Shown one piece after another: positions 3,515 through 48,816 of a DNA stretch of 64,000 bases (position 1 is the stretch's first letter; the number at the start of each line of letters is the position of its first letter). Both the position numbers and the translations under genes were made by a program. This DNA is from Mobula birostris (lineage: Eukaryota), in NCBI RefSeq assembly GCF_030028105.1, contig NC_092396.1, positions 19,365,820-19,429,819 of the forward strand, in the 5' to 3' direction. The notes under the pieces were generated by a model that worked only from the letters and a program-made list of their open reading frames with translations, searched no databases and was not told where the DNA came from.

Positions 3515-4446
3515 CTAATTTGCTTCATTCTGCTTCTTTGTGTAATCCTGAATGCAGGATTGGAAATAGACCATGGTGTTCTTCTGTGGCATAAACAAAA
3601 TGATGTAGCATTTTGGAATAAAATATCCCAGAGCAATACTAAAGGCACTAGTGACAGTTAGGAAAGTCTGTATGAACGAGGTGTACCTCTCCTGATTGGG
3701 GGTGACCATTGATGTCATGAACAGGATGTAATATACAAAGCAGATCATCATACTGAAGGCGATGAACTTAGCCTCATTGTAGTTTTTTGGTAGGTCTCTT
3801 CCCATGTAAGCAAAAAGGAAACATGCTACAGTGAGAAAAACAGTGTAAAGAAAACTGAAAGAGAAGACAACGATATTACCAGTGTTGCAGTCTAGGACAA
3901 TTGATTCCTCGATGATGTGGCCATGAGGACTGGGTGGGTCTGTGATTAGCCACACGGCAGAAATGATGATTTGGATGAGAGTGCTTAAGAAGATGAATAT
4001 GTACTGCCCATTATACTTAACCCAATACTCATGGGCCTTAGGTAGCTTGGCGGCCAGCTTGAACATGCAGACAATTTGGAAAGACCTGACTAAGATACAG
4101 GACAGGCAGATGGTGAAGCTCACCCTGAAGAATGGCTGCCTTATTTGGCAGAAAACTTTGCTTGGTTTACCAATGTAGAAAAACACACAGGAAAAGCTAC
4201 AAATCATTGATATAAGCATGAGAAAACACATTCTACCACCAGCAGACCTAACAACTGGAGTATTGTAATTCAGTATAAAGATGACCGCTATGACAATAGT
4301 CAATAAAAGCCCACCGTTTGTCAAAACTAATAGGAATATCGAGAAGGCGCTTTGCCATTCCAGATACTTCAGATCCCATTCCAGGCAGCGATGGCTCTTT
4401 GGAGGTGACCATTGGTGCCAGGAACAATCCACACAACAGTAGGGAT
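3515..4446 (-). CDS. TAS1R1-like: Gene A exon 6 (end of CRD, 7TM domain, C-tail)
   Basis: Acceptor ttttttgcag|AT; DPYCCVDC..QWSP..TPVVRSAGG..CQIRQP..PKNYNEAKFI..PKCYIIL; TAG at 3517-3515. Confidence 0.95.
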
Positions 4447-13200: not shown

Positions 13201-16200
13201 CCTAAAGGAGAACCTGCAGGTTAAGTTGATGGTGCCAAAGACAAATACAATGTTAGCATTCATTTTGAGAGGACTAGAATATAAAAGCAAGGATGTAATA
13301 CTGGGCTTTCTAAGGCATTGGTCAGACCAGACTTGGTGTATTGTGAGCAGGTTTCAGGCTCCTTATCTAAGAAAAGCTGTGATAGCATTGAAGAGGGTCA
13401 AGGAATGAAAGGGTTAATGTATGAGGAACGTTTGACGGCTCTGGGCCTGTACTCACTGGAGCTTAGAAGAATGATAAAAGGCCTAGATAGTGTGGATGTG
13501 GGGAGGATGTTTCCTCTAGTGGGGGAGTGTAGGACAAGAGTGCACAGCCTCAGAATAGAGGAATGTCCATTTAGAACGGAGATGAAATTTCTTTAGCCAG
13601 AGGGCAGTGAATCTGAGGAATTCATTGCCACAGGTGACTCTGGAGGTCAAGTCATTACGTACATTTAAAGCAGGGGTTGATAGGTCTTGCTTAGTCAGGA
13701 CATCAAAGGTTATGGAGAAAAGGCAGGAGAATGGGATTGAGAGATAACTGCCAAAGCAGATCGATCGACTGAATGGCCTAATTCTGCTCCTATGTCTTAT
13801 GGTCTCACCCAGTTTCAGAATGTGAAGGAATCTCCTGCCAAACAGTTCTAAAATGCATTTCTCTCAGATTGCATTCCTGAGATATTTTTGTAATAATTTT
13901 TGCAAGTTATGGTGATGAATTGTTTTGACCTCAATTTAATATCTAACATCTCCCCTTGCTCCCTCTCCTCATATGCTGAGTTTATTGACTCCAGGCTTCT
14001 TCGGTTGACCGGTCCAATAACATAAGAGTGGAAAAGCAGTATATTTTTAACATATTTTCTTGTTAGATGTTTGGAACTGCAGATAATGTGATACAGCAAA
14101 ATCCAATGAGGTCAAGAAAAAGAAATAAAAAACAATCTGAGGGATATTGGGTGCTTACTTACCACTTTGGTTTAGGTATGTTCCAGAGGGACAATCTTCA
14201 CAGCTGAAGCAGCAAGGAAAAACCCCTCTTGGGACTTTCTTCTGCCCTAGTTCACAGTTTGCTGAACAATTAGAAAACGGGACCTGTTGGATAAAGAACA
14301 CAAGATCTCGTTATAAGCTCTGCAAGGGGACCTAGTTAATATCCTTAGGGATGAATTATATTGTGGGGTGTGGTGGGATGGGATGGGAAAGACGGATTAG
14401 CTGCTATGTTTGATCATTGTAACTCAGCAGAACAACTGTTTGGAAAATAAAGCAAAAACTTTGCATTTTTTTGTGGAATTGCCATGTACCTCCACAAAAC
14501 AATTCAGAAATTCACTCGCAATAGATTTCTCCCCACAGCTTCTTGTTTTAGTGTCACGGTATTGTTTGCTGAGAGCTGTGAATCCCCTGGCATTCCCTCA
14601 CACCAACAACACACATCAAAGTTGCTGGTGAACGCAGCAGGCCAGGCAGCATCTCTAGGAAGAGGTACAGTCGACGTTTTGGGTCGAGACCCTTCTTCAG
14701 GACTAACTGAAGGAAGAGCTAGAAAGAGATTTGAAAGTGGGAGGGGGAGGGGGAGATCCAAAATGATAGGAGAAGATAGGAGGGGGAGGGATGGAGAAGA
14801 CAGGTCCAAAATGATAGGAGAAGACAGGTCCCTCATACCATTAGTTTTCATTATCCAATCTAAAAATAACTGGGAACTCTGAGCTACTTCCCACTGAAAA
14901 TATGAAAGAGTTGTTGCCTAGAAATTGAATGGCAATGATTTAGATGCATTTAGGTGTCATGCACGGTGGGCAAATAAAGCATTGTTGGGCGCTCACATCG
15001 CAAAATTCAAAAATGTGTTTTGCCCAAGTCTTCATGTGTTACTGATTTGACTTTATTCATGGAACAATTTTTCAGATGACTCCAGATGCAGATTGCAATT
15101 AGATTTGTAAGGGATAGAGGCTTGTGAAGCGGCTGAGGCTGGCGAATGATAGGAGAACAATCAGAAGGGCAGGAGTCAGCTCGGACTTCGGGTGAAGAGT
15201 GAAAGAAGAGAAAAGTCGCATTTAAGTGCTGAGGATAGATAGATTAGATGAGGAAGGGACAGAGCAAAAGTCAGTGTGCGAGGCTGGGGTGAAGAGAGGA
15301 AATGGTAGGACATGGGGTGAAGTTAAGTCAGCCAGTAGTGTAGTAGCATCCGCACTGGGCTTCGAGGCAAGTGGTCCTGGGTTCGAATCTGGCCAGCACC
15401 TTGCACACTTTCCATCTGTGCTAGGTTGAGCGTCGGGCTGGCAACTCGGTCTCATAAAAAAACAAATGCTAAAGAAGCGGCAAGGTTTCCACCCATTGCG
15501 CCACAAGGCGTGGAGAGGACTATCATGGGGTGAAGTTAAGCTGTGTAGGGTGGCACGTTACTCCAGCGAAACACTTAACAGAAGATCAGGATTCAATTCC
15601 CACTGTTGTCTGTAAAGAGCTTGTGTGTTCTCCCCATGACTGTGTGGGTTTCTTCCGGGTGCTCCAGTTTCCTCCCATATTCCAAAGCTGTTCGGGATTA
15701 GTAAGTTGTGGGCATGCTATGTTGGCACTGGAAGCATAGCAACACTTGTGAGCTGTTCCCAGCACACCCTTGGACTGTGTTGGGTCATTAATGGAAACAA
15801 CACATTTCATAGTGTGCCTCAAGGTATATGTGACATATAAAGCTGATCTTTTATCTTGTGATGTGAGACGCGACCAGCAATGGCTGTGGTTGGGCTGCCA
15901 AGTTGGACCATTGTATTGGTAAGAATATTACTCAAAATGGACCAAGCTGAGTTGTGTTCCCAGCATCAGACTCCCCAGCCTAGGTTTTGTTCAGATAGGT
16001 CTCTATAAACAATGACAAAAAAGGCTATACAATTTGCCCACCGTGCACTACCCCTAAATGTATCTATATGGTTGTATCTAAATGTAGCTAAATATATCTA
16101 AAAGGATATATCTCAATGTACCTAAATGATATCTAAGTGTATCTAAATGGGTGCCATTCAATTTCTAGACCACAACTTTTTTATATTCTTGGTGGGAAGT

Positions 16201-19200
16201 AGCTCAGACAGGTAGTCACTTTTTAGACTGGGTAATAAAAACTATTCAGGCCTACTTCTGTATGATTTATATATTTGGATTTCTGAATACCAATTGATTC
16301 ATTGTAATGGAAAATCAATCCTGGAAATCTGAAACAAAAATCACTAAACACTGGAAACATTCAGCTGATCCTGGCAGCATTTGTAGAAAGAGAAATAAAA
16401 ATGTTCCCTCTGTTCTATTCATCTTTCCTCTACCTTTCAGCAGCTTAAAACTAATTTTTTTGCTTGTTTTCCCAGTTCTGTTGAAGGGCTGTCAGCCTGA
16501 AATGTTAACTTCCTTTCTCTTTCAAAGATGTTGCTTGCTTGCCGACTGTTTCCAGCATTTTCTGTTTTTCATATTGTAGTTCCTGCTTCTCTGTTCTTTA
16601 AATGGACTGTGTTTTCTGATAAATTGATCTTTGCTACACAATAAATAATTTTCTGTGAGTCATACACCCTAGGGTTTGATATAGTGTACTAAAACCTTCA
16701 GGATTGCTTACTGGCGAGGCAATGCTTTCAAAGTCTTATCACTTGTTATATGGGAAAGTACAGCAGCACATTTTCAAAGAGCAATGCTGGAAAACCTTTG
16801 GGAGGTACATGATCTGATCATCTGTTATAATGCTTTTGGCTAAAGGATGTAGTAACTCCATTGCACTTCTCTCAAAGGCACCCAAAGACTCACCAGAGAG
16901 GGCAGACAGCTCCTCACCTTAAGATCTTATTCTAAAGGTAATATCTCCAACCGTCTAGAATTCCCTCAGTGTAATACCATGTTGTAAGTCTGAATTATAT
17001 ACTCAATTTCTTGAACGTTAGCTGGAATCCCTACTGACTCAGAGGTAATAATGCTACTTAAGAGCCAACGTTAATGCCTGGATTCGTGCATCTTATTAAT
17101 ATACAAGTGCAAGCCTTTTTGACAAGCAAAAGAATGAATTTTTAACTGAATTCTCACCAAGTTATCTTCCCAATTCCAGTGGATCAAGGATGGATCGATG
17201 CTGATCTTTCTAGCAGATGGTATGTATGAACCAACAGACTTAAAGCGGACTCCAGCTCTCGTCCATTCCCATGAAACAATGTCATAGCCAGTTGGTGGGT
17301 CTCCATTCTCATCAAAGTAGAGAGTGTAATCTTGAAGCTTAAATTTCACTGTCTTCAATCTGCTGAGCAACTGACAGACAAGTTTTAAACTGACTGAATG
17401 CAAGTAGATGACATCAAAATTGGACTTGGGAAGTTTAACCAAGATGATTGAAATGGCGGAGTGGACTTGATGGGCTGAATGGCCTCATTCTGCTCCTATG
17501 TCTTATGATTGATATTGTTTGTAATTATGCTCTCTTCATTACTAGAACTGTAAACGTCATCTCTTTTTGGTTCATATTATTTATTTCTTCTTGCCCAGTT
17601 TTACTTACCCAGTACCTGGTATTGTTTTCTGTCTTGGTTTCTTTCTTGGGTTCTTTCTCTTTATGCTAAATTAGTTGCTGAAGGCTAAGGATTTGGAAGT
17701 TAAGTTTATTCGTTAGGATAAGGTTTTCAGGATAGATTAAGGCAATATCTGAGGTTTGGTGATTTCTTTTTAAAAGCAGGATCTTACCTACCACTGGGAC
17801 AATTTTTAATCCAGTTGGCTACCTCATGCTGGATTCCACATAATCACATTTTCAGGACTAGCCTACCATGCAGGGACTGATCGAAGGCTTGGCCAAAGTA
17901 CCACTCGTGACATGGAATTTATAGCTGAGGCTGTTCCCATACACCAGCTTCCTTTGTCCCTCTGTGTAATGAGAGTTCCTGTTTTGGTGGATGCTTCTGA
18001 AGAAGATTGGGTGTATTGTTTCAGTGTATTTTGCAGGTGGTACCTATCATAGCCAGAGAGAATAATTTGCAGGTGGTACCTATCATAGCCAGAGAGAACA
18101 AATTAACTATTCAGGGTGTTGGATGGGGTATAAATATAAATGCTATTGACTGGAGGCAGGGAAAGATCGTCAAAATGAGATACAAACCTAATGGACTCAT
18201 CCTTAACAATCTACCTACTGTCAATACATGACTGTTTTGCTAGACGGGACACTGCCCAACTCCCATCCATATTTATGATACTCCAATGTCTTTCTTTGGT
18301 TTTTTTTGGTGCGTGCCTGCGTGCGTGTGAGTCTGTGCGTGTGCGTCTGCGAGTCCGTGCGTGCGTCCGTGATGGTGTCTTTTTCATGGCTTTTACAAGG
18401 CGCGGAGCGAGAGAGAGAGACTGTGTGGGTGCCACTCCTCACACAGACATTTTCGCAGTATTTTCCCTTTATTTTACAAGGTCGAGTTGCGATCTCGACA
18501 CTCAACCCAGCACGGATGGAAAGCGTACTCGGGAGCAGACCCGACTAGTCTCGAACCTGAGAACCTCCGCTCTCTGGTCCGGCGCCGATGTCGTTGCACC
18601 ACCAGCCGGCCCCTCCAATGTCTTTCTAAAACAGACAGATTCATGACAGACCTGGGAGATCAGAACTGAGTGCCAACAAGGCACAATGGACTATGAGCAA
18701 AGGAACTGTGTTTCATCACAGCCTGGTAGGTCCTTTATTCTCCAATTCCATCAGACCAAGAGAGCAACCCTGCTTTAATAAAAAGTGTGAAAGAGCATTG
18801 CAGGATTAACATTGGTAAAACAGTGAAGCTACAACATATGACTCGACACATGCTATATAGTGACAGCAGCATGATATAGACTGACCCGCATACTCAGAAA
18901 TAAAGGGCTAGAGGCTCCAAAGACCTGCCAGATCCAGGCATGACTGGTGAATGAAAAGAACACACAGAAATAAGAACAGGCACAGGCCTCATGACCTCCA
19001 CCTCATCAAAGTTACTCCTCCATTCAATACAGTCATGGCTGATTGAAGCTAGTCCTCAACTCCATTTCTGTGCCAAACCCCTGTAATCCTCAATACCCTG
19101 ACCTTTCAGAAATGAATCTACCTCCGCTTTAAACACTCCGAATAAGCTATCCTCTACGACTCTCTGGCTAGGAAATTCCAGAGATTCACTGCCATCGGCA

Positions 19201-22200: not shown

Positions 22201-25200
22201 TTTTCTTTTCCACACCCAACTCCTCAGATAATGTAATAATTAGCAATGCTGTGCAATACGAATGAGAGGCTTGGGTTCCCATGTGTCAAATAACACGCCT
22301 GCCACCAAAGTGCCTGATAACAGACATTTCCTCCATGTGAATGCCTAAAGCTCTCCCACTGAGAGTTAACAGTATTGAATTCACCACTGACCAGAGTTCT
22401 AAATGGAACAGAACTGTGACTACAAGCGCGTTAGAAACAGGGCATTCTGTCTGTCCGTATGATTCTTCTCCTGATACCCTGAAGCCTTTCCGCCATTTAG
22501 GAGGCACAAGTCAAGAGTGTGATGGAATGCTCTGTACTTGCTTGGAAGGGGGCAGGTCCAATAATATTCAGAAAGTTTAGTATCATTCAGGACAAAGCAG
22601 AGCACTTGAATAACACCAAACTTACCAACTTAAACATTCACCCTCTCCACGATCAATAAACCTGGCTTTGATTTATATCAATAAAAAATGTGAGATTGAG
22701 TGGAATAAAGAATAATAGTGATCGAGTACAGAATGAGAAATTGAGATTGAAGGATATGACAAGATTGGGCTGAATAATATAATGGGCAAATGACATTGAA
22801 GGAGAAAGAAAATAGGTGCGACTTAGGGAAGATTAAGAAGATTGAGAGCTAAATTAAGAAAATGGACAGTATTGAAGAGTGCGACGAGTAGTCAGGTTTC
22901 GTAGATAGAGTAAAGATATGTCAAATTTCTAAGAGCTTTGACCAAACTCTTGCTCTGTAGAGAGCATTCTGATTAGTTGCAACACAGCCCGGAATGGAGT
23001 CTGCAATGTACAAGATCACAAGAGGCTGCAGAAGGTTGTCTACTCAGTAGCTTCATTCCAAGAACAGTGCTCAGTGCTCCCCAACATCAAGGAAATCCTT
23101 TCTGAGGCACAATCATTAAGGAACCTTATCATATGGAACATGCCCTCTTTTCATTACTATTGCCGTGGATAAGGTACAGGATTCTGAAGACCCACACTCA
23201 GTGATTCAGGAATAGCTTCTTTATTGCCATCATTAGATTTCTGAATGGCCCACAAACCCATGAACACTACCCCCTTGCGACACACACAAAATGCTGGAGG
23301 AACCCAGCAGGCCAGGCAGCATCTATGGAAAAAAGTGCAGTCGACGTTTTGGGCCGAGACCCTTCGGCAGGACTGGAGAAAAAAAGGCTGCCTACCTTGA
23401 TGAAGTTTAAATCTTCCTTTCGATGGGAGTTCAGTGAGCCCCTCTCTCACTGCTCCCCCTCTGTGATCCCCGCTGCTCTCTCTTTCCATAGATGCTGCCT
23501 GGCCTACTGAGTTCCTCCAGCATTTTGTGTGTGTGTGTGTGTGTGTTGCTTGGATTCCCAGCATCTGCCGATTTTCTCTTGTTTGTGATTTGAACACTAC
23601 CTCCTCATTCCTTTTTTGTAACTGTTTATTTAATTTATATTTTATAGTAATTTTAATTCTTTGCACTATGCTGCAGAAACAGAATTCACATCATATAAGA
23701 CAATGTTAACAAACTTGTTTCTGGTGTTGAAACAGATAGTGTTGGAAATTTAGGACGAGGAGTAAGAGGAGGAGATAAAATGGAGAGATATGATGTGAGG
23801 TTAAATTGAGGGATGAGGTTGAGGGAACACTGAGTGTGGATGGGATCGAGGCCTCCATTGGTCAGGTCAACCATGGATGCTGCATCCTATCTCAGTACGC
23901 AAGCCAGGGCAGTACAATAAGGAGAGCAAGCTGTTGCCCATGCAGCAGGCTACCCCTATCCCTGCAGTTGATGGTTCGAAAGGAATGGCAGAAACCAATA
24001 CAAATTGGCACCAGTGGCTTCACAGGGGTTGCAGTCATGTTGAACTCAACATTGGACTGTCTTCAGGACTCCAGCTTTGGAATTTTCCTTGCGTTTACTC
24101 GTGACGTCTTCATCACGAGTGGGTGTAGCCGCAAGGCCACGAAGGTTTGAGGCCAACGTTTTTCTCCTCATAGATGAGCTGCCAACCCCTAAGCAATTGG
24201 TTTTAAGGTGCCAGGGTCCTGCCTTTGCCCTTCTCCTGTCAGTAGAAATGTTAAGGCTAAGCCACCATTTCAAGGCCAGGAGCTGGTCTTGGGTTGTCAG
24301 AAGCTACTCAAGACACACACCAATGGGAGCATTTAATAGGCTTGTAGGAGCTTATCCCCACAATCCCCTCGCTATTCCCCTCCTCCAGACCAACTTTAAG
24401 GAACTGTGGATGGGATGGATGTGTTAAAACTAGGACAGGTTTGTTGCATTTAACAAACTTTTCATGCTTCTAACAATTTCTGAGCTCTCATACCACTATG
24501 TAAGTGAGGACCACACCTTACCTGCCATGGGAGGACACTTTGTGTTTTATCAGAGCGTGTTGTGTTACACTGGAGCAGACTATGCAAACCATAGGCGACA
24601 GCATATACAGCTGAGTATACATTGTATGAGATTCTCTTCTCCACATTGTACGATGAAGAGTTTAAGTACTTAGCCCACTGCCAATGACACTCGCTACATC
24701 CTTGATCACAAGTGCTTCTGGAGCTGACACACTCTCCCATCTCCAGGTCTGGCATGATCCATGAATTAATGTCGTTCCGAGATTTGTCTAGGAACTCCTT
24801 AAAGTGGGTCATTTTCCCTTCCTTAACTGCAATGCCTATAACAGTCCCAATAGTCTCAATATTTGGTATGTTTGCTATCTCCTCCGATAATGAAATAGAT
24901 TCACTTATGATCCATACTTTGGGAGTAAGTTTTCGAGCCACGACAATACTGAAAAACACATGTGCTATTGAGGGATTGGAAAAGAGGATAGTAACATTAA
25001 CCGTGGTACTGATATTGTTGATGGTTTGGGTGATGATCTCGGGTGAAGTGGTGATGATACCCTGATATGCAATGCAGATCCCCATTGCTGAGGCCATCTC
25101 CACCACTTTGCTGACTGCTTTGTGCCCATATTCATTATCACTACCAATGACAGCAACCCAGTTCCAGCGGAATTCCTGGATCAGCAAAGTCATGGCTTCT

Positions 25201-28200
25201 GCTTGATTCTTGTCACTTGGAATGGTCCGCAAAAATGATGGGAAACGTATTTTATCACTCAGAATCTCACCAGATGCCAGGTAACTAATCTGCAGAAGCA
25301 AAGGGGAATACCTGTATTAATGCAGCTTTTCACCACCAACGAAGCCTTCACTGTGTCAGTTTATCTTGCTCCAAGCAGAAACAGAGAAGGCACATAAATC
25401 TGTTTAATAAACAGCAACGACCACAAACACCAGAGGTTCTGCAGATGCTGGAAATCCAGAGCAACACACACACTGAGAGTGGTAATCGTAAAGGAGGGGG
25501 GTTTGCTGTGCTGGTTAAAAACAGATGGTGCAATCCTGGTCATATTACGATCGAGGAACGTGTTTGTAGCCCGGATATTGAACTTTTTGCTGTTGGACTC
25601 CGGCCATATTATTTGCCAAGGGAAATCTCACATGCAATTGTGGTTGTTGTGTACATCACTCCCTCTACCAACACGACGTTGGCGTGTAACATCATTTACA
25701 CCGTTGGGCACAGGACTACATTCAGCCAGAGACTCATTCCACCGCGATGCAGCGCTGAGCGTCATGGGAAGTCATTCCTGCCTGTGGCCATCAAACTTTA
25801 CAACTCCTCCCTTGGAGGGTCGGACACCCTGGGCCAATGGGCTGGTCCTGGACTTATTTCCGTCTGGCATAGTTTACATATTATTATTTGATTGTTTGTG
25901 GTTTTGTATCGCTATGTTTCTACTCTGTTCTTGGTAGGTGCAACTGTAACAAAACCTAATTTCCCCCGGGATCAATAAAGTATGTCTATCTATCTATCTA
26001 TCTAAAATGCTGGAGGATCTCAGCAGGTCAGGCAGCACCTATGGAAAAGAGTAAACAGTCGACATCTCAGTCCTGATGAAGGGTCTCGGCCTGAAACAAC
26101 AACTGTTCACTCTTTTCCATAGGTGCTGCCTGACCTATGGAGTTGCTCCAGCATTTTGAGTGTGTTGCTCTGGATTTCCAGCATCCACAGACTTTCTTGT
26201 GTTTGATATTTCAGAACTCAGCAGGTCAGGGAGCATCAATTTGAGAGGAGAAAACAGTCGTTGTTTCAGGTCGAGACCCTTCATCAGGACCAAATGGCTG
26301 ACCCAGGCAATCTTCTTTGGCTGCTGCTTAAGTTTTACACAATCTGGTTTACAGCAATAAGGCAACAAATGCTAAAGAGGATTGCCTAGCTCAGCCAAAG
26401 GCAGAAGCCACAATATGAGTAGAGAAGGTATGAAATTTGTAATGAGGGTTGAAGACAATATCTTCAGTTTTATGAATACTGGAAGGATTTACAAATTGTT
26501 CAAGATTGGATGTCAATAGAGTACTTTGACAGCATAGAGGAAGTGGTGAAATTGTAAGAGGTGGTACAGACTAGAAACTGAGTGTAACGTAGCAGAATGT
26601 ATTGTACAGTACATTTCAGACCTGCCAGCAGATGTCATTGCGAACATAGAACATAGAACAGTACAGTACATTACAGGCCCTTTGGCCCACAATGTTGTGC
26701 CGACCCTCAAACCCTGCTTCCCATATAACCCCCCCCCCACCTTAAATTCCTCTGAAGGGGCAGTGTGTTTCATTTCTGGCCTGAGCTGTATTTGCTGATC
26801 TTGGCCTAGGTGGTGGGCAGAGGAAAGTCAATAACGTCTTGACCTAATGTCCTCCCCTTCAAAAGGACCACAACCTTGTCATTGGGTTTGGAGGCTTGTG
26901 TGCCTTAATGACCCAGAGAGCTACGTTGGTTGGAGTCAAGGCTTTACGCTTTGGCTCTTGGTAGGGTCATCAATGTCAAAAGGTCAAAGGGTAGAGGCCA
27001 AACTATGAATGAGCCACTGGTCCTCCAGGTTTGGGGGTTCAACTCTGGGCTAACAACCCTAAATGGTAAAACAAAGCTGTTATGGAAACAGCAATGAAGA
27101 AACTCCTTTGTGATGGTATCCCTTAGTCTCCGCCAGGACTTGCGTGACTGACAGCAGGGAAAACCAAGGGGAAGCTACTGGCATGATGAAGGAATCCCTG
27201 AACACCACCAGAGATGGAGAGTCTTCGTTGTTGCCTTAAATGCCTGTCGCGTAACAGGCCGTGAATATCTAATGGTTTCCAAGAATGCTCATGGTCCTCA
27301 AATGCAGTTGCGTAAAATGCTCCAACAAATACCTAATTTCTTTAACATAACTAATGGATGCTTCTGTGACAACAAAGAGGGCTTAGACATCTTCAGGAAG
27401 GAAGGGTCTTGACCCATTGGGAAAAACTTCACCATAAATGGTTCAGAGGGCAAACTAAAGCAGGAACTTTAAATGAGGAAATGATTATACCGTTCATCTA
27501 ACCTTTATGGTAATATTGGGGCTGAGAACTTCGACTACTGCAGTTCAAATATTAACAAACATCATGCTCAAACTCACCTGAGGAATGAGGAAGAAACCTA
27601 ACACTCTAGCAATGATAATAGCTGTATCTGTCGATGGGGGTCCAATAACAGCAATCACCCTGGGCTGATAGGATGTATAATTGTTTAATAACTCCACTTC
27701 TGTTCCTTCTTTGGCCAACAGGAATCTGAACATGGCTTGGATGTCCACAACCTCAAGGCAACTGTCAGCAACATCAAAGCCCAGAGTAACGCCTGGCAAC
27801 AGTTCAGTTGAGTTATTAATTTCCTCAATGGCAAATCTCATCGCTTGGAAAAAGACAAATATCTCTGCCAAGAAAGCAGACCTAAAAGGACATGATTCAT
27901 TTCAGTTAAACTGTCATTGATAAGAAACAGAGAACTGAGAACAGACCCTTTGACCCACAATATCTGTGCCAACCATGCCAATTTAACTAATCGTATCCTA
28001 TGGTTTGGCCCCATATGCCACCTAGGCACTAAGGGTTCAGACGACGATCCTATGGTTTACACGTAGTACTGTCCAGGACTGAGCTATAGCTGGCATTATT
28101 CCATTGTCATAGTCCAATAAATTCAAGGGAATTGGCAACAAGTTGCATTTTTCAAACCAACAAATTCCACAGTGAGTTGTCCAACTACACATCATCTATA

Positions 28201-30494
28201 TATCGCCATTCCTTGACTATGTGCCCGTCTAAAAGCCTCTTAAATGTTATTACTGCACCTGCTTCCATGACCTCCCTGGCAGATGCTGGGTACCTAGTGG
28301 TCCCTGTGTAAAGAAACCTGCCTCCTAAATCTCCTTTGATCTTTCCCCCCTCTTAAAATAGGCCTCTAGTATTTGACTTCTCCAACTTGGGAGAAAGGAT
28401 CTGACTATCTACCCTATCTGTGCCCCTCGTTCTTTCATATATCTCTATTCGGTCACCACTTCAGCACCTGATACTCCAGAGAAAACAGTCCAAATTTGCC
28501 CAGTCTCTCTTTATATCTAATTGCTATCTGGTTCCTGGGAAATAATTTCCACAAGTGTCAGCCATTTGGTCAAGTACTGGGACATGAAAATTGCACGGCC
28601 CTAGTCTGTTCAACTATTGATCGTAAACAAAAATGATGTTCTTGGCTAATGTGGGCAACTGTTCTCTACCAATGTGTCTGACAAACATAGTCATGAGGGG
28701 AGAAAAACACTCAGTGTTGAAGGGTTTTGGGAACCAAAGGCCCAAAGTCACCTGCTTTTCATAAATACACAGCATTCACTACATGTCTCAAGTTATCAAG
28801 CAGACATTTTCCTGAGTTGCTAGAACAATGAATATCTCTATAAAAAATTTGACCCAGTTTTAACCTGAGATGCAAACCTCTAGCAGCTGGATAGTAATGT
28901 TACAACAGTCATTACGATTGAATGGCAAGGATCCAAGGGTATGTTCAGCTGCACAAAACAACATCATTCAGGTGGACTGCAGCTGTTGTTATCACTAATC
29001 TAAGCAAACTCAGTGTTGTGAGCCTGTTACCTGCCTGGCTAATGTTCAACTCTGAAAAAATCTGCCCGGCGATGTCGAAACATCACGAAACTCCAGACTG
29101 TGATCAGAATGTTCTGTCTCCTGCTGGGGTCTTCAGCTCTGCCATGAGAAACCGATACTAAGTTCAGGTAGAGTGAAGGAGACTCCGCAGATGTCAAACC
29201 AAAGGGTGAAATAAAGGCGCATGTGGCCTGAAGTGTCATTGCTACTAGAGTCAGCAACAGTTGGACAACTCATGGTGGAATTTGTGGGTTTGAAACGTGC
29301 AACTTGTTGCCAATTCCCATTAATTTATCAAGACTCCTGGGAGGGGGGAGAAGATGGCGGTGTGACGACAGCGTGCGGGGCCACTTCGGTGATGAATAAC
29401 TGTTATCTGTCAAGTAGGGGACTGTGCACTGTATCTGTCAAGTAGGGGACTGTGCACAATCCTGATTTGATGGAGACAGATGTGAGAGCACAGCGGAACA
29501 TCTGGAAAACTTCTGAAATGTCTGCTTTGCTACCGCTGCTACTGTGTGGTAACCAGAATCTCTGGAGCTGAAGGCCTCGAAATCCTCGGCTTTGCGTGTT
29601 TCAGCGGCTGGGGAGAGGTCGAAAGCGCTCGGCAGAGGATGGCGCTCGGGTGGCTGTATTGGAGAGGCTGTTCGGAAGCTCGGAGTTTTCGGACGGATGG
29701 ATTCAGGGTCAGCTGTGGTCGGCTGCTTCCAAGGTATCGGCAAGTTGACGGTGCCTGAAGGTTTATGGCGGGGAGTTTCTCCCTTTTGCCGCCTGCTATC
29801 GGGGACTCGGGAGTCGATCGACTCGGGGACTTTTGAGACTTTATTTACCGTGCCCATGGTTTGTCCTTCATCAAATTATGGTATTGTTTTGCACTGCTGT
29901 AACTATATGTTATAATTATGTGGTTCTGTCAGTGTTAGTCTTTGGTTTGTCCTGTTTTCTGTGATATCACTCCGGAGAAACATTGTATCATTTCTTAATA
30001 CATGTATGCATTTCTAAATGACAATAAAAGAGGACTAAGTGTTCTCATAATTTAATCTAAAAGACTATGACAATGGAATAGTCCGAGCGAAAACTCAGTC
30101 CTGGATAGTATACTACATGTAAACCGTCCAACTTTTCCAACTAGAATGCAATCATTCGTAGATCATATGTATAAAAATCTACCCACACCCCCACTTGGAT
30201 TATAACTAAGTCTCTAACTTGCTTGATTTCATTCATGACAAGGCAGTTATAGTATCTTTCCAAGGATTAGTTCCACATTAGGATATAAATTTATCCAGCT
30301 GTTACTTACTTCCCACAGCTGGGCACAACTGGCTCCGATCGATCCACATCTTTAAGTGGGAGTGTGTGAATTGGAAACAGGCCCCCAATCACATATTCTC
30401 CCGGTGCGGTTAATATCCTTGTGCATTCTTCTGGGGCGACACTGACGGGCCCCTGTGTTGTGGAGTAAACAAGCAGGGTAAGAAGGAGGTACAT
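3515..30494 (-). CDS. TAS1R1-like: Gene A: taste receptor type 1 (class C GPCR), T1R1/T1R2-type; six exons 30494-30310, 27881-27578, 25289-24522, 17370-17158, 14283-14163, 4446-3515; 2523 nt = 840 aa + stop
   Basis: All five introns are GT-AG with TAS1R phases 2,0,0,0,1 and the joined frame is open. Motifs: GEYVIGGLFPIH, AMRFAIEEINNS, ISYLAS..LSDKIRFPSFLRTIPSD, nine-Cys domain, 7TM with DLPKNYNEAK and C-tail PKCYIIL..FQSCIQDYT (T1R1/T1R2-like). The exact orthologue needs a phylogeny. Confidence 0.93.
4630..5030. repeat. Degenerate minisatellite, period about 65 bp
   Basis: Recurrent units resembling agcatggg-ttagatacag-taaagctccctctacact; about 6 decayed copies. Confidence 0.5.
5028..5306 (+). 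mobile_element. 3' end of a Rex1/Babar- or L2-type LINE
   Basis: Encodes STFSQRLIPPRCNTERHRKSFLPVAIKLYNS; AATAAA followed by a (TATGAC)n tail; matches 25706-26003. Confidence 0.7.
6770..7195. mobile_element. Penelope-like fragments with hammerhead-type motifs, including an inverted-repeat hairpin at 7040-7190
   Basis: CTGATGA/CTGAAGA-stem-(G/A)AAA motifs at 6855-6894(+), 7048-7091(-) and 7143-7186(+). Confidence 0.55.
7266..7292. repeat. (TG)n microsatellite at the end of a Penelope-like fragment
   Basis: Direct reading of the sequence. Confidence 0.9.
9434..12366 (-). mobile_element. Gypsy/Ty3 LTR retrotransposon, internally deleted, two LTRs of about 240 bp (9434-9673, 12120-12366)
   Basis: Similar LTRs; TSD GCAGC at 9429-9433 and 12367-12371; purine tract next to the 3' LTR; decayed RT, RNase H (LACDASPCGIGAV) and integrase (PWQRIDVDFA, DNGPQF) in Gypsy order. 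Confidence 0.88.
12566..13197 (+). mobile_element. Penelope-like element 3' fragment (GIY-YIG C-terminus plus terminal repeat)
   Basis: DLPVAAH...LRLEEIHLVFHLRSLQPDGMNIDF; flanking duplication TTCCCTAAAGGA at 12554-12565 and 13198-13209. Confidence 0.75.
14163..14283 (-). CDS. TAS1R1-like: Gene A exon 5 (cysteine-rich domain; absent from the ORF track)
   Basis: Acceptor ccaacag|GTC; VPFSNCSANCELGQKKVPRGVFPCCFSCEDCPSGTYLNQS; phase-1 donor G|GTAAGT; 121 nt, the same size as gene B exon 5. Confidence 0.93.
14605..14830 (-). mobile_element. Penelope-like terminal repeat fragment
   Basis: Shares the gcaggccaggcagcatct...cagtcgacgtttt.gg.cgagacccttc..caggact block with other copies. Confidence 0.7.
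15327..15520 (+). mobile_element. tRNA-derived SINE
   Basis: A-box-like TAGTGTAGTAG and B-box GGTTCGAATCT; core ttccatc.gtgct.ggttgag.gtcg shared with 18296-18612. Confidence 0.7.
15547..15855 (+). mobile_element. V-SINE (HE1-like)
   Basis: tRNA-like head plus V-domain ttctccccatgactgtgtgggtttcttccgggtgctccagtttcctccca. Confidence 0.7.
16053..16149. repeat. Degenerate 10-bp tandem repeat (CTAAATGTAT)n
   Basis: About 9 imperfect units. Confidence 0.6.
17158..17370 (-). CDS. TAS1R1-like: Gene A exon 4
   Basis: Acceptor tgtctgtcag|TTG; LLSRLKTVKF...YFDENGDPPTGYDIVSW...IHW; donor TTG|GTGAGA; 213 nt. Confidence 0.92.
18030..18098. repeat. 36-bp tandem duplication
   Basis: tttgcaggtggtacctatcatagccagagagaa at 18030 and 18066. 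Confidence 0.9.
18296..18612 (-). mobile_element. Young tRNA-derived SINE with a 15-bp TSD
   Basis: B-box GGTTCGAGACT, (CGCA)n plus A-rich tail, TSD CTCCAATGTCTTTCT at 18281-18295 and 18613-18627. Confidence 0.85.
21673..21925 (-). mobile_element. V-SINE (HE1-like)
   Basis: Reverse-strand V-domain (gtgggaggaaaccagagcacccggaggaaacccatgtgg on plus) and B-box. Confidence 0.75.
22950..23720 (+). mobile_element. L2/Rex-type LINE 3' remnant interrupted by an inverted Penelope-like pair (23279-23590)
   Basis: RYRILKTHTQ*FRNSF-like remnant; duplicated TGAACACTACC at 23261 and 23591. Confidence 0.6.
24522..25289 (-). CDS. TAS1R1-like: Gene A exon 3
   Basis: Acceptor cttctgcag|ATT; ISYLAS...FRWNWVAVIGSDNEYG...VYSAVYAVAYGLHSLLQC...LPWQ; donor CAG|GTAAGG; 768 nt. 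Confidence 0.94.
25474..26003 (+). mobile_element. Internally deleted Rex1/Babar-type LINE inserted in a Penelope-like fragment (25425-26290)
   Basis: Endonuclease piece KGGGFAVLVKNRWC...RPYYLPRE...VVYI joined to the RT C-terminus KSFLPVAIKLYN and a (TATC)n tail. Confidence 0.7.
26850..27262 (+). mobile_element. Probable RTE-derived non-autonomous element
   Basis: RTE-like 5' leader (ctggtcctccaggtttgggggtt...gggctaacaaccct) and RTE-like 3' end (RWRVFVVALNA); recognised from memory only. Confidence 0.4.
27578..27881 (-). CDS. TAS1R1-like: Gene A exon 2
   Basis: Acceptor tccttttag|G; FQAMRFAIEEINNSTELLPGVTLGF...VIGPPSTD...FLIPQ; donor CAG|GTGAGT; 304 nt. Confidence 0.93.
28054..30125. mobile_element. 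Putative DNA-transposon relic bounded by about 60-bp imperfect inverted repeats (28054-28114 and 30063-30125)
   Basis: ggtttacacgtagtactgtccaggactgag...tattccattgtcatagtc versus its reverse complement; contains nested retroelements. Confidence 0.55.
29341..30060 (+). mobile_element. About 0.7-kb non-autonomous retroelement
   Basis: 5' GGAGAAGATGGCGG, 3' AATAAA and aatctaa tail; homologous to 2746-3369 and 58726-59410. Confidence 0.75.
30310..30494 (-). CDS. TAS1R1-like: Gene A exon 1 (signal peptide, start of Venus flytrap domain)
   Basis: ATG at 30494; MYLLLTLLVY...APGEYVIGGLFPIH...VPSCG; phase-2 donor AA|GTAAGT. Confidence 0.9.
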
Positions 30495-38150: not shown

Positions 38151-38374
38151 ATGCAGAGACAATTATTGTGGATTGAAATGATGAGCTACATTGTGCAATT
38201 GGTTTTCTATTTATCGCTGGGCATGGCTTCTGTAACTGAAGCAACAGGACTTCGGGGAATCAATGCACAGTACATGCAGCCCGGAGACTACATCATTGGA
38301 GCTCTGTTCCCTTTCCATGAGTTCGGTACTGGTCTAGCTCATCGATTGAAGCCTGAGAGGGTGACTTGTGACAG
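38151..38374 (+). CDS. TAS1R3-like: Gene B exon 1 (alternative ATG at 38178/38181)
   Basis: Hydrophobic signal peptide, PGDYIIGALFPFH, VTCD; phase-2 donor AG|GTAAGG. Confidence 0.88.
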
Positions 38375-38929: not shown

Positions 38930-39400
38930 ACAAAATGCTGGAGGACCTCTGCAAGTCAGGCAGCATCTATGGAGGGGAATTAACAATCAACAGTTTGGGC
39001 CAAGACCCTTCATTGGGACTGGAAAGGAAGGGGGCAGAATAAAAGGTGGAGGGAGAGGAACGATTACGAGCTGGCAGATAATAGGTGAGATCAGATGAGG
39101 GGGAAGGTGGGTGAGTGGGGGACAAAGTAAGAAGCTGGGAAGTGATAGGTGGAAGAGGGAAAGGGTTGAAGAAGGTGGCAGCTAATAGGAGGGGAGAATG
39201 GATCGTGAAAGAAGGATTGGAGATCAGGAGGCAGAGGGAGGTGATGGGCAGGTGAGGAGAAGAGGAGGGCTGAGATGGGGAAACCAGAAAGGGGAGTGGA
39301 AAGAAAGAGAGAAAAGTTTTTAAAAAATCAATGTTCATGCTATCAGCTTGGAGGATACACAAATGAAATATGGAGTGTCGCACCTCCAACTTGAGTATGG
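38930..39400 (-). mobile_element. Penelope-like 3' fragment in gene B intron 1
   Basis: HSIFHLCILQADSMNIDF remnant plus terminal repeat. Confidence 0.7.
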
Positions 39401-39916
39401 CATTTACTCATACCTGTCCTTACCTGGCCTGGCCTACATGTGGCTCCAGACCTATCAATGAGGTTGACGCCTAGCGACTTGCTCAATTCAGGGATGGATA
39501 AGGATGTGGGATAAATACTGGCATTGGCTGCGATGTCCACATCCCGTGAATAAATAAAAGTCGTCTAGTCCTTGATCTTCCTGTCACGACCTGCAGATGA
39601 AATGCAGAACGCCATCAAATATTCAGAAGCAGCAAGTCAACAAAACCCAACAATTTTAATCAATAATCACTATTAGTTGCCCCATCAATGTCCCTGTGGA
39701 GACCCATGAAGCATAACTGTTGAGTGAGGTCACCTCACTCAACAGGAGAGCTGGCTCAGGAGCTACTCCTTCCACCTGGCCAAGTGGCTACCATGCTGTG
39801 TGAATCATAATTCTAATGGATCCTTTCAATTCTGTTTTGCTTCCCCCTCCTTCCCACTGCCAAGGTTTTCGGGGCTGTTACCCACATAGCACTAATCTTT
39901 GTTTTCTCTGTTTAAG

Positions 39917-40217
39917 CTTTTACCCACATGGTTACGGAATGTTTCTGGCAATGACATTTGCGATCGACGAAATAAATAACTCCACCTCACTTTTGCCGGG
40001 AATACGCCTGGGTTATGAAGTCCACGACGATTGTTTTGAGACTTTGGCCTCCATCCTGCCGAGCCTCCTCTTCTTGTCTAACAGCAAGGGGAATGGGGTT
40101 GACGTGCTCTGCAACTACTCAGAGTACAGGAGCCAGGTGGTTGCCCTGCTGGGACCATGGACATCGGAACAGGCAATTACCATAGCCAAATTGTTCGGGT
40201 TGTTTTTGTTTCCACAG
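39917..40217 (+). CDS. TAS1R3-like: Gene B exon 2
   Basis: Acceptor tctctgtttaag|C; FYPHGYGMFLAMTFAIDEINNSTSLLPGIRLGY...LFPQ; donor CAG|GTAAGT; 301 nt. Confidence 0.92.
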
Positions 40218-41380
40218 GTAAGTCCTTCGTGGTTTTCTATTTGCCACAGTTGGAGCCAAAACAAGCAGCGGTGAACTGGCACTCAATTTTATATTCTGCT
40301 GGAATCTGTGGAAAAGGAAGCAGGCCCTGTCTAAAATCTGCTGCCGAACTATGATCACAGGTCTTGCACTGTCACCAAGCTGAATTTCTATCACTCAGTT
40401 CCTCGCTAATGAGCTCGGTCCCAGGAATTTGCGTCAATTTCTGTTCAGGCAATTGATTTCAACCGGCAGTCAAGCTTCAGTTAGCTTCAGCTTACAAGAA
40501 TGATCACATGATCCCCACCCACACACGCAGGGTGGAGGGCAGGGAAGTCAGCCGGGTTTTCAACCCCCGATCTCTGCCAAATGCCCTGTCCTGACTGAAA
40601 GCCGGTATGATCTAATGACAGGGAAATTGGCAGCAACATCTTTGGCTTCAGTCAATAAAAGTTCTGAATGGAAGTGTGGACTCTCAGGGCATACACAGGA
40701 TCTATGATAACAGTGGTCGCCAGGAAGTCTTCAGTTTTCCCCAAGGATCCAGGGACAGACACATTGTGCAAGGTTTGCTCAGTGCCCACACAATGACATT
40801 TGAACAGAGAGCAGAGGTAGTCAAGAGGAAAAGGGTTTGCCCCTCATGCCTCAGTTCCATTATGAATAAATCTCAGAAATCACAGAGCAAAATCACAAAC
40901 TTAAATTTAACCATTCTAGTTTCCTTATATTCTGAGGAACTAAATGTTCCTTGGGAACAAGGGCTAGGAAGTCGCTCCCTAGTACCTCATACCAAGCTTC
41001 ACAGATGCATGAATTACTGGAGAAAGTATGCAGCCACATTGGTTTAGGCGTCAGCAGTCTGTAGAGAACCGTACAAGTAGATAGTCAAGTATCAGACCAA
41101 TTAGTCACTAAACTATGCTTTGTTCTTCCACGTTGAAAGTTCAGATATTGGGCCAAGCCTGAAAGTACAAAGTAAACAAAAAAACAAAATTAAAACTGAG
41201 GAAGTTGTAAATTCTCCAGATTACAAACGGAGGCCAATAAGGAATGATACAACAATCTTGACTTCGAAAGCAGAGACAGGACAACTGTGCAAAATGGTGT
41301 ATTTATTGGAAACGGGAGATTGGCATTTGGGTAAGATTTAATGTGTGAAGATACAATTATGGATTCTCTTCCTTTCTTAG

Positions 41381-42177
41381 ATTAGTTATGGAGCCTCCAG
41401 TGCCAAACTAAGCAACAAGAAGATCTTTCCGTCATTCCTGAGGGTAATGCCAAGTGACAATAACCAAGCAATAGCCATTGTTTCTATTATCAAGAAGTTC
41501 AAATGGAACTGGATTGCTGGCATTGGGAGTGATGATGAATATGGGCGACAGGGGATAGAACTGGTCCAGAGGTATGCTTCACTCCAAGGTATCTGTGTAG
41601 GTTACATTGAGATAATCCCCATCCATCTCAGCCTGCCCAGTACCAAGCAAAAAATCTCAGAGATCGTCAACCATATCAGCCAAGTGAACGTTAACATTAT
41701 CATCCTCTTCTCCAGTGAAGGACCTGTTCAGGAACTGCTGAAAGAGGTGATTCAGAGAAATATCACCAGGAAGGTCTGGATTGCAAGTGAAGCTTGGGTT
41801 AAATCGGATATTGTTATTCACATACCAGGTATTGAGCGCATTGGCACAGTGATTGGTACAGTGGCAGCATGCCAGGTTTTGAGGATTACATTCTAAACCA
41901 TCTCACCAACATCAGGAATTCAAAGGGACAGCGATGTGATGCAGAGTACTGTGGTAACCATACCTTTCCTTTTTGGCCGTACCCTACCTCACAGCAGCTC
42001 CTCAGCGGCGTTCAACACCTGTCACCTGAAAACCTGTCCGTTGTGTTGGACCAGCCGGTAAGACGGGACACATTCAGTGTGTACATGGCTGTGTATAGTA
42101 TTGCACACGCACTACATACCCTACTAAAGTGCCACACTGGGAGATGTGAAACCGCAGCAGCATGGTACAACTGGCAG
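41381..42177 (+). CDS. TAS1R3-like: Gene B exon 3 (frameshifted)
   Basis: Acceptor cctttcttag|ATT. ISYGASSAKLSNKKIFPSFLRVMPSD...IGTVIG reads in one frame and MPGFEDY...VYMAVYSIAHALHTLLKC...NWQ in another. Donor CAG|GTATGA. Confidence 0.9.
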
Positions 42178-42318
42178 GTATGAAAAAGTTTCAATGTTTA
42201 TGCCCAGAGTCAAAAGTTGCATGCAGAGCTAATTTATGTTTCTGGATTGTGCACCATCTGACCATAAGCTCCAACTACTAGATTCCTGTGACCAGGTCTA
42301 TGATCTTAGGAGTTATTA

Positions 42319-42605
42319 AGGGGCGGCATGGTAGTGCACTAGTTAGCACAACGCTTTGTGTTACATGCGACCCGGGTTCAATTCCCGCTGCTGCCTGCCA
42401 GGAGTTTGTACATTCTCCCCGTGACCACGTGGGTTTGCTCCGGTGCTCTGGCTAAATCCTACAGACCAAAGACGTACCATTAATTGGTCATTGTAAATTG
42501 TCCTATGATTAGATTGGGATTAAACTGGGGGGGGGGGGTTGCTGGGCAGCATGGCTCAAAGGGGCAGAAGGGTCGATTCCACACTGTATCTCAATAAATA
42601 AAAAA
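42319..42605 (+). mobile_element. V-SINE (HE1-like)
   Basis: A box, B box GGTTCAATTCC, V-domain, aataaataaaaaa tail. Confidence 0.75.
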
Positions 42606-42840
42606 TCAGTGGTGATCATCCCTTTGATCTTCTTCTGTGGTGGAAATAATTAATCTCTGGCACCAGACTGCCATGTCCCTCTTGAGCTCTAGATAAGTGA
42701 CAAACGTTGTCTGATTCTGTGCACTGAACTTAGTCCTGGGCTCAGTGGAAAAGAGTTGAAGATGTCCATGATGCATGAGAGCTCGTAGGGAGAGATGGCT
42801 GACTCCATCAGAGCAGGACAGCTGGTGAGGTGGACACTTA

Positions 42841-43160
42841 AGCCTGATTTATACTTCTGAGTCAACGTGTCGCCGCAAACCCTACGCAAAGCTGACGTGG
42901 AACCCTACGCGAGAGCCTGCGTTGCTGCAAAGCGCACCTCTCCCAAAATGTAACCGCGCATCACAGCAACGCAGAACGCAACTGCTGTGATTGGTCCGCT
43001 TGGTAGCATCGCCTTCCCTCCTACGCTGCAATAGCTTCCCATTGAGCAACTGAAGGGCAGGGAAGGAACTCTGGCTGCAATGCTTTCCATAAAGCTTTAC
43101 AGACCTCCGAGATTATGGAGGACACATTTTGCTTTTATGAAAAAAGACGCTTGCGTCCCG
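42841..43160. mobile_element. Probable one-ended PIF/Harbinger-like MITE fragment
   Basis: TTA|AGCCTGATTTATACTTCTG terminus and CpG-rich body; second TIR not found. Confidence 0.35.
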
Positions 43161-44321
43161 CTCCAAGTTTAAGAATCATAAATCTCACAGCTCACTTATT
43201 TGTCACTGATGCTGGGATCCACAGGAATACAGTAAAGAGAAGTTTACGGACTACCAGTAAAACATTTGCTAGAAGAATACTTCCAGAATGCCCCCGAATG
43301 AAAAGGTCAAAACTACCTCTGCCACGTATAGATGCTCAAAGGGAGGATGCTTTCTGTTGAGAATGTGAAAAATAACCACCAAATGCATTTATTTTCCCGA
43401 GAATTAATGAGCTGCTGCTTGTCTTCAATAGATCTGGCAGGAAAGAGAAATGCAGGAGCATTGTCAAAAGACTTAATGAGAAAGGTCAAAGAGTGAAAAC
43501 ACAGCTGGGTGCCCATTTCTACTTAAATCTCACTTTAAGCTCTGTCACGTTCACGAGGTGGGAATTAGGCCCTAAGTACCTTTCAATCTCTTCCTGCTGC
43601 TCTTAAACTACTTAATGTCCTGAGGCACATTCCTTGCTGTGCTAAAACTGGAATTTTCCAGCCGTACCAGTGAATCTCCGGAACTCCCAATATGGCAGGC
43701 AGGAAATGCGTGCAGAATTCTGGCTTGAAGTGATACTCCTATCGCCTAATCTGTGGGCAGCACAAGCAAAGCAGCTGCCCACAGATAACATGATAAGAGG
43801 TGCCTTGCGTCACTGAAGTGTGCCTTCTTACAATGATTGGATTAATACTGTATGTTGTTGGATCCTGGTGATTTTGTGATCCAGGCGTTCTTCAGAAGTC
43901 AAGAATGAGGCATAACACATGGTGGTTATGGGCGTTTATTACATGTAATAAGAACAAAGAACAGAACAAAGAAAAAATACAAAGAAAAAAGGAGTCTAGG
44001 TGGCCTTATTCTAAAACCTAACTCAAACTATAAAGATAACAAAACATTTCATAATAGCAAATCACCTATTAAAGAAGCAGATTTCAAGTGATGTGACACT
44101 TGCTGCAGAGAAACTGAGCAGCTTTTAGAAAAATACAATATCAGCTATACTACTATCAATGAAAAGTTCACTGAAAAATTTAACATATGTGAGTTCTATA
44201 TAAAAATACAAGAAAGCATAGGAAAGGTTAAACTTTGAGAGAAATAACGGTTTTATGCTCTAATCCAACAAGGCCAACAATCCTTAACGTCATCTAACCT
44301 TGACTGAATTTCCTTTGACAG

Positions 44322-44525
44322 CTGCTGGAAGTGTTAAAACAAGTTAACTTCACGGTCAACGGAGTTGTCATTTCTTTCGATGCTGAAGGAAACTCGCAGC
44401 AAGGTTACGACATCATTACCTGGACGCAGCGTGCAGGACAACTCCAGCTATCAGTGATTGGCGGCTACAAAGATCACTTGACAATCGATGCTTCTCCAAT
44501 TCAGTGGAAGACAGACAATAATGAG
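44322..44525 (+). CDS. TAS1R3-like: Gene B exon 4
   Basis: Acceptor tcctttgacag|CTG; LLEVLKQVNF...FDAEGNSQQGYDIITW...IQWKTDNNE; donor GAG|GTGAAT; 204 nt. Confidence 0.92.
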
Positions 44526-44907
44526 GTGAATTATGATGACATTTATACTAAATGATATCCATTCACCCTTCTGTATAGTCCCACGGCAGCCTGGGCCCTA
44601 TGCTTTGAAATTACTTCCTTAAATCTCTCCTTTTTATCTTAAAGACCCTCCTTAATACAAAGTTATTAGTCATCTGTACTAACGACTCTTTTTAGGTTCA
44701 GTGTTAATTTTTTGTTTAATTATGTTGCTGCAAATACACTAGAATGTTTTACTGTTGTTATTAAATTATTACATAAATGCAAGCAATTATCCGTCATACA
44801 CTGGTCATTACTCTTGATCCCCAATTTTTGTTCCCCTAAGTGCACCATGTGATTCACCAGTCACTGCCTGATCTGGCTGAGTGACAATTGAAGCCTGCTC
44901 TCCTAAT

Positions 44908-46455: not shown

Positions 46456-46576
46456 GTACCTCTGTCCCACTGTTCCAAGAGCTGTGGCCTGGGCCAAAAG
46501 AAACTTATCATCAGTCTTTACTCCTGCTGCTTTGAATGTGAAGATTGCCCAAGTGGAACCTTCCAGAACTCAACTG
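46456..46576 (+). CDS. TAS1R3-like: Gene B exon 5 (cysteine-rich domain)
   Basis: Acceptor cattcacag|GTA; VPLSHCSKSCGLGQKK..SCCFECEDCPSGTFQNST; donor G|GTGAGC; 121 nt. Confidence 0.92.
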
Positions 46577-47675: not shown

Positions 47676-47887
47676 AGCTAAAAGGCTCAGGTGATTTGAA
47701 TATAGAATGATAGACTCCCAGGCTAGAGTCTAATTAAGTATAGCAATTTATAAACGGACAAAGTGGAATGTGCTTAAGGTTGAAATATCATTTGTTGTAA
47801 TATGTGCGGAACTATGTCATTCATATATAGTACTTAATAAGCATTATCAGATGGTTTGCATGTGACAATTTAATTTTGCTGTTCCAG

Positions 47888-48816
47888 ATGGTTTTTTCTG
47901 TTATCATTGCCAACCAGATGAATGGTCTCTGCCAAAAAGCTCTTCCTGCTTCAAGAGAACTCTTCAGTACCTGTCTGTGTCCTCACCTGTTGGTGTGACT
48001 CTGCTCCTGTTTATGGTGCTTGAGCTCATGCTAATATTGGCTGTCACAGTCATCTTCCTGGTGAATTCTGGTGCCCCGATTGTGGAAGGTACCGGTGGGA
48101 AAATGAACATAGTCATCCTAATCTCACTGGCTCTCTTATGCTGCAGCTCATTGCTTTTCCTTGGAGAACCTACTGAACTCACCTGCAAGTTACGCCAGCC
48201 AGTGACTACTCTTAGCCTTACCATCTGCACATCAGTTCTGCTTATCAATTCAGTACAGATCCTGCTCACCACGGAGCTAACCAGTTTAAGCAAGCCTTTC
48301 CTCTGCAAATACCAATGCTCTGGAAGGTACTTTATCCTCTGTGCCAGCCTTGGGGGGCAAGGAGCCCTTTGTTACCTGTGGCTGAAGACACATGGTGACT
48401 TTCTGATGATGACCACAGGCGATTCTGAAGGTGCCCTTTCCCTCTTCTGCAAGAGTGATTCAGAGCTGGTGTTCTGGCTGATGTTGGGATATAGTGGCCT
48501 CCAGGCGCTGGCCTGCTTCATGTGTACCTTTCTGATCCAAACACCGGCTCGAACCTACAATCTAGCCTGGGAGATTAGTGTTGCCATGATCTTCTTTATC
48601 TCTGTCTGGATTTGCTTTATCCCAACCTACACAGCTGTAAAAAAGAACTACGCACCTGCTGTACAGATCAGTGCTATGCTCCTCAGTTCCATGGCAATAC
48701 TTGGTGCCTATTTTATCCCCAAATGTTTTGTGCTTTGGTTTAAGTCACAGTACAATACCAGAGATTACTTCCAAGTTTATAATCTTAAAATTTCAGTAAA
48801 GGAGGAGCATCAATGA
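47888..48816 (+). CDS. TAS1R3-like: Gene B exon 6 (7TM domain)
   Basis: Acceptor gctgttccag|AT; DGFFCYHCQPDEWS..C..CKLRQP..WICFIPTY..YFIPKCF; TGA at 48814-48816; open frame. Confidence 0.93.

Follow-up and report, generated by a model that had tools for sequence, protein, structure and literature searches.

A 10-bp deletion in exon 3 of the taste receptor gene TAS1R3C is probably a real germline event that recently made this gene null in the lineage of the giant manta ray, Mobula birostris. The deletion itself is confirmed in the sequence of one assembly and one haplotype. A loss at the level of the lineage is favored by the context of the lesion (no homopolymer and no N), by the seven codons that eight of nine orthologues have at the site, by the placement of the gene in a clade with SH-aLRT support of 100, and by the function of the orthologous receptor pair in Hemitrygon and Carcharodon; predicted T1R3C and T1R4 models of the congener M. 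hypostoma, with apparent separate lesions, point the same way. Counting against it are the dependence on one assembly and one haplotype, the single lesion with no long relaxation, and the absence of the deletion from M. hypostoma.

Two head-to-head taste receptor genes

The window, by which we mean the whole 64-kb stretch of DNA analyzed, contains two six-exon class C GPCR genes, gene A on the reverse strand (30494 to 3515, with an open frame of 840 aa) and gene B on the forward strand (38178-48816). All introns of both genes are GT-AG, and six exons are the rule for T1R genes (PMC10781636, accessible part). The Pfam domains ANF_receptor, NCD3G, and 7tm_3 (Venus-flytrap, nine-cysteine, and 7TM, respectively) were found in this order on the exons; in gene B the three-domain order is preserved in the remnant, not in its 337-aa product. 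A protein named M. birostris matches exon 6 of gene A with 100% identity, which fits this cartilaginous fish as the source of the window, and the rest of that T1R6-1 protein model agrees with gene A except at the start and in one extra predicted exon.

By its phylogenetic placement, gene A is TAS1R6-1 and gene B is TAS1R3C. The tree was a quick search on 50 rows with SH-aLRT support only and no bootstrap, its anchors being paired by eye with entries in the available supplement of PMC10781636. Gene A falls within an eight-row clade with elephant-fish T1R6-1 (SH-aLRT 100), apart from T1R6-2 and T1R6-3; this clade includes P0065, the start of which agrees with the C. milii T1R6-1 of the same supplement. 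Gene B falls within a 10-row clade with elephant-fish T1R3C (SH-aLRT 100) that is sister to bony-vertebrate T1R3A/B, and P0010 agrees by eye with the C. milii T1R3 entry (PMC10781636, accessible part).

An Oct-type octamer lies less than 300 bp upstream of gene B, a motif described for TAS1R4 (PMC10781636, accessible part), and prompted us to consider gene B as TAS1R4. The tree outweighs the motif and, together with the published sequences, rules this assignment out: T1R4 forms a separate 11-row clade (SH-aLRT 100) that includes elephant-fish T1R4 and leaves gene B outside, and exon 3 of gene B is ~42% identical to Hypanus T1R4 versus ~73% to sawshark T1R3C. The octamer may be an ancestral element common to T1R3 and T1R4, or a chance occurrence (~2%).

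The start codons of the two genes are 7.7 kb apart in their head-to-head arrangement (window 3515-48816), and this placement makes common regulation of TAS1R6-1 and TAS1R3C possible. Degraded LINE pieces at 33441-37250, with an endonuclease domain at 34351-34974, occupy about half of the interval between the start codons and stop ~0.9 kb before TAS1R3C. Four further stretches, at 59852-61339 (+), 9985-10377 (-), 54599-54910 (+), and 63010-63705 (-), include a 495-aa reverse-transcriptase frame, an integrase fragment, and a 231-aa frame without a Pfam match; we take another, also without a Pfam match, to be transposase-like.

Table 1 Features of TAS1R3C (gene B) and TAS1R6-1 (gene A) in the window
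Feature	Position	Strand	Basis
TAS1R3C exon 1, ATG at 38178	38178..38374	+	tblastn with P0003
TAS1R3C exon 2	39917..40217	+	tblastn
TAS1R3C exon 3, 797 nt, Venus-flytrap domain, holds the lesion	41381..42177	+	ANF_receptor matches flanking the break
TAS1R3C exon 4	44322..44525	+	tblastn
TAS1R3C exon 5, cysteine-rich domain	46456..46576	+	NCD3G 43.3 bits, cut-off 38.9
TAS1R3C exon 6, 7TM domain, open to normal stop	47888..48816	+	7tm_3 159.5 bits
10-nt deletion site, TAS1R3C exon 3	41858..41868	+	11 nt versus seven codons in orthologues (P0008, P0001-P0006, P0010)
Premature TAA, product 337 aa	41894..41896	+	Reading frame
Oct-type octamer, ends 135 nt before TAS1R3C start codon	38036..38043	+	Chance of such placement ~0.02
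TAS1R6-1 exon 1, head-to-head with gene B	30310..30494	-	Gene model
TAS1R6-1 exon 2, Y97F at 27776-27778	27578..27881	-	Alignment
TAS1R6-1 exon 3	24522..25289	-	Pfam
TAS1R6-1 C409S	24552..24554	-	Ser versus Cys in 213/213 aligned named T1Rs
TAS1R6-1 exon 4	17158..17370	-	Gene model
TAS1R6-1 exon 5	14163..14283	-	Gene model
TAS1R6-1 exon 6, 7TM, R554W at 4376-4378	3515..4446	-	Pfam; M. birostris protein match

The deletion in exon 3

The length of exon 3 of TAS1R3C is 2 mod 3, and 11 nt separate the codons for IG from those for MPGF, after which the shifted frame closes at a TAA. A first-pass annotation of this DNA had reported the same exon length, gap, and stop, all of which we reproduced, and had considered the remaining exons and splice sites sound; indeed each of the five introns has GT-AG boundaries and a consistent phase, and beyond the lesion the frame stays open as far as the normal stop at 48814-48816. 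This is the single lesion in 2,549 nt, an inactivating coding lesion of the kind expected in a unitary pseudogene. The predicted product comprises 327 native and 10 out-of-frame residues and ends upstream of the cysteine-rich and 7TM domains, close to the ~340 aa without a membrane domain anticipated earlier.

The size of 10 bp was originally estimated against the paralogue, gene A. Orthologues agree with it, since seven residues occupy the site in eight of the nine T1R3C-clade proteins compared, the ninth, from zebra shark, being itself disrupted at the same site. M. hypostoma and Hypanus both read TVINSGS here, the former retaining all seven residues in the sister-species alignment that had been proposed as a check; the loss is therefore 10 nt and not 1 or 4, and orthologue length rules out a 1-nt indel. 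The longest homopolymer within 20 nt of the lesion is 4, in line with the earlier claim that the site is not in a homopolymer, and the window has no N. An AGTG-type microhomology, as first suggested, is compatible with the observed 11 nt, but its length ranges from 0 to 6 nt across the codings of the seven residues that would yield them, and this mechanism is possible rather than demonstrated. The deletion may have arisen by slippage or microhomology-mediated repair amid short ACAGTG repeats.

Stops more than 50-55 nt ahead of an exon junction generally expose a transcript to nonsense-mediated decay (NMD). The premature stop lies 281 nt upstream of the next junction and 606 nt upstream of the last, and the gene B transcript is likely an NMD target, as proposed in the first-pass annotation. 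The transcript would thus probably be removed, and whatever was still translated would amount to part of the ligand-binding domain, without a membrane anchor.

Age of the lesion, the congener, and the partner gene

The two genes are equally distant from the Hypanus stingray orthologue models (706/771 identical residues for gene B and 707/769 for gene A). Across 561 columns of gene B invariant in three sharks, 13 changes are found only in Mobula versus 15 only in Hypanus (p=0.85); a conservation-weighted test against 215 named T1Rs gives p=0.22, and none of 51 near-invariant columns is broken. The amino-acid tests thus give no sign of long-standing relaxation on the Mobula branch. The end branch of gene B measures 0.0047 in the quick tree. 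Outside model-artefact zones, 16 amino acids differ between gene B and M. hypostoma, 10 of them derived in M. hypostoma, four in the lineage of the window, and two unpolarized. Lack of acceleration would be expected for a very recent loss, and these comparisons suggest that the loss of TAS1R3C is recent or that the allele is not fixed, which bears out the recent date proposed in the first-pass annotation from the single lesion. Relaxation tests had been called for in both genes; our amino-acid comparison covers that point in part, with no significant excess in gene B or in gene A (17 versus 13 changes, p=0.58). The T1R3C model of M. hypostoma (P0008) has all seven residues at the site, which excludes a deletion common to both Mobula species and places it after their split.

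Lesions in M. hypostoma were read from predicted proteins, among which we gave strong weight to shifted-frame peptides only. Gaps in predicted proteins were downgraded as proof of a lesion because models also err where none is known: P0057 contains an additional exon even though gene A itself is free of lesions, and the membrane-region gap of the M. hypostoma T1R4 model (P0190) recurs in P0325. P0008 ends in a shifted frame reproduced by a 10-nt deletion at the window equivalent of 48756-48762, the only length between 1 and 19 nt to do so, and this change by itself touches only the last 18 residues. The same model skips 87 nt of exon 3 from an Arg CGA codon on (window 41546-41548) and replaces the end of the exon by a cryptic piece that lies in intron 3 at ~43434; a C-to-T change at the CGA codon would create a stop and, at the same time, a GT donor. 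It also carries F451L, C684W, and, in the first membrane helix, I590K, the last being one of the 10 M. hypostoma-derived changes. In the exon 3 region of P0190, 14 of 14 residues equal the +1 frame of Hypanus, against a maximum of nine in 746 control windows. On these models, M. hypostoma has apparent lesions of its own in T1R3C and an apparent frameshift in T1R4.

The T1R3C models of the Rhinoraja skate (P0002) and the Stegostoma zebra shark (P0009) are without much of the membrane domain. These gaps may be further losses or model artefacts. A shifted-frame test in zebra shark (4/4) scored no higher than its control (maximum 4). A search for another T1R3/4-type gene, one of the checks proposed initially, could be answered in part: beyond genes A and B the 64-kb window holds no further T1R fragment, and no M. 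birostris T1R3C was among the protein matches listed, although the T1R6-1 of this species is annotated; this absence is weak evidence, since one search also missed P0001, P0004, and P0008. Neither a Mobula T1R6-2 nor a basking-shark T1R3C was among the matches listed, which is not evidence of their absence.

Gene A was described in the first-pass annotation as an intact partner. Its reading frame is indeed open, but C409S, Y97F, and R554W fall at strongly conserved sites: Phe at residue 97 replaces a Tyr present in 210/212 aligned named T1Rs, and Trp at residue 554 occurs in 0/214. Departures at 0 to 2 of the 51 near-invariant columns are also seen in intact shark T1Rs, and the corresponding cysteine pair of the calcium-sensing receptor tolerates mutation. 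We regard possible decay of gene A as a lead, not a result.

Consequences, alternatives, and known taste losses

The partnership of the two genes, proposed from the window, is supported by the T1R6.1-T1R3C heterodimers of red stingray and white shark, which give clear responses to sucrose and also respond to proline and alanine (bioRxiv 10.64898/2026.08.28.746343, accessible part). These pairs are orthologous to that of the manta, in which, by contrast, T1R3C is truncated and T1R6-1 has C409S. With TAS1R3C null or truncated, the T1R6-1/T1R3C receptor could not form, and the deletion thus predicts its loss in the manta; T1R6-1 would be left without its known partner and may have begun drifting. 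A probable release of selection on the receptor in Mobula would have allowed separate lesions in the two species. To call T1R3C the common T1R subunit, as in the first-pass annotation, is too strong: it is one of two T1R3-like subunits of cartilaginous fishes, and since T1R4 is the second, the disappearance of T1R taste as a whole does not follow from this lesion alone. That Mobula is losing T1R taste entirely, species by species, with T1R3C broken twice independently, T1R4 frameshifted in M. hypostoma, and an orphaned T1R6-1 starting to decay, is a tentative extension that we consider doubtful. If true, a devil ray with neither shared subunit left could form no T1R heterodimer, and the genus would parallel the whale losses among fishes at an early stage.

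A real but segregating or heterozygous null allele, most mantas keeping a working T1R3C, would agree with the single lesion, the very short end branch, the mere four of 16 differences derived in the lineage of the window, and the lack of a relaxation signal in gene B. We think it unlikely, as the broken appearance of the T1R3C and T1R4 models of the congener and the missing invariant cysteine of the partner are better accounted for by a genus-wide release of selection. An assembly error in an intact gene is far less probable. The remainder of gene B is fully conserved and the case rests on an assembly rather than on reads, but a clean 10-nt loss outside homopolymers is not a usual long-read consensus error, and its position amid short direct repeats is typical of real deletions. 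Least credible of all is cryptic splicing around the lesion that would preserve receptor function. As many as 134 GT..AG pairs within exon 3 would bring the sequence back into frame, the best of them with near real-site scores (donor 7/9, acceptor 11/15 pyrimidines), but this pair deletes 248 nt of the ligand-binding core, a loss of 86 codons compared with the intact gene, the shortest pair has weak sites and still deletes 71 nt (27 codons) of it, and skipping of exon 3, while in frame, loses most of the domain.

The preferred reading of a recent lineage loss leaves room for a further possibility, concerning the consequence of the lesion and not the lesion itself, to which we give appreciable weight though we do not favor it: T1R3C is dead with little effect on taste, T1R6-1 working with T1R4 or T1R6-2/T1R4 covering amino acids, and the loss reflects neutral birth-and-death turnover that has nothing to do with filter feeding. 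When elephant-fish T1R6-1, -2, and -3 were assayed with T1R3C and T1R4, T1R6-2/T1R4 was the sole responsive pair (PMC10781636, accessible part), which suits such turnover, as does the open frame of gene A. The accessible part of the same source enters whale shark TAS1R6-1 as a gene beside a TAS1R3C pseudogene. The broken zebra shark model shares the short in-frame gaps of the whale shark entry, so that decay would predate whale-shark filter feeding, and the missing T1R3 entry of bamboo shark is likewise in keeping with turnover. Against this, T1R6-1/T1R4 gave no response in elephant fish, and bamboo shark, for which T1R3 has no entry, has a T1R6-1 pseudogene, as expected of an obligate pair (both PMC10781636, accessible part). 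T1R4 also appears frameshifted in the predicted M. hypostoma model.

Mantas and whale sharks are filter feeders, and zebra and bamboo sharks are bottom feeders. The link to diet raised in the first-pass annotation is not shown, T1R3C being broken in zebra shark and without an entry for bamboo shark. Loss of T1R3C is thus not confined to a single setting, and a causal role of filter feeding in Mobula is hypothetical.

Loss of taste genes is a familiar kind of event, and the manta TAS1R3C case looks recent and unreported, although automated annotation may already flag the locus as a pseudogene. Literature searches, several of them broad, gave no paper on T1R loss in Mobula among the top matches listed. 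The name Mobula does not appear in the species table of PMC10781636, in the searchable part of the supplements of PMC10869828, or in the main text of bioRxiv 10.64898/2026.08.28.746343, the supplements of which may hold ray T1R repertoires and other white-shark pairings; a term search of PMC12497559 and PMC11979771 returned nothing on Mobula or T1R.

The affected pair has only newly been shown to be a shark and ray receptor for sugar and amino acids, which allows a specific sensory deficit to be predicted for mantas from the lesion, and the manta locus is a natural test of the dependence of T1R6-1 on T1R3C. The published whale shark TAS1R3C pseudogene (PMC10781636, accessible part) is an inactivation of the same gene in a cartilaginous fish, and the gene can therefore be lost. 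The whale shark, however, belongs to another order and has another lesion and an older decay common to zebra shark, whereas the manta gene carries a single lesion and, apart from it, equals that of the stingray in conservation. Sweet and umami receptor genes have likewise been disabled in other marine animals: T1R loss is described in whales, with swallowing prey whole named as a likely cause (PMC4079202, accessible part), and in pinnipeds and penguins (PMC10869828, accessible part). If the lesions of the congener hold, Mobula would provide losses that are recent and arose independently, with intact stingray relatives as a reference, and in that case a cleaner test than the old whale losses of the idea that bulk swallowing releases taste genes. 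The whale, pinniped, and penguin losses are old, clade-wide, and affect all T1Rs, in contrast to the one recent lesion of the manta and the different lesions of its congener.
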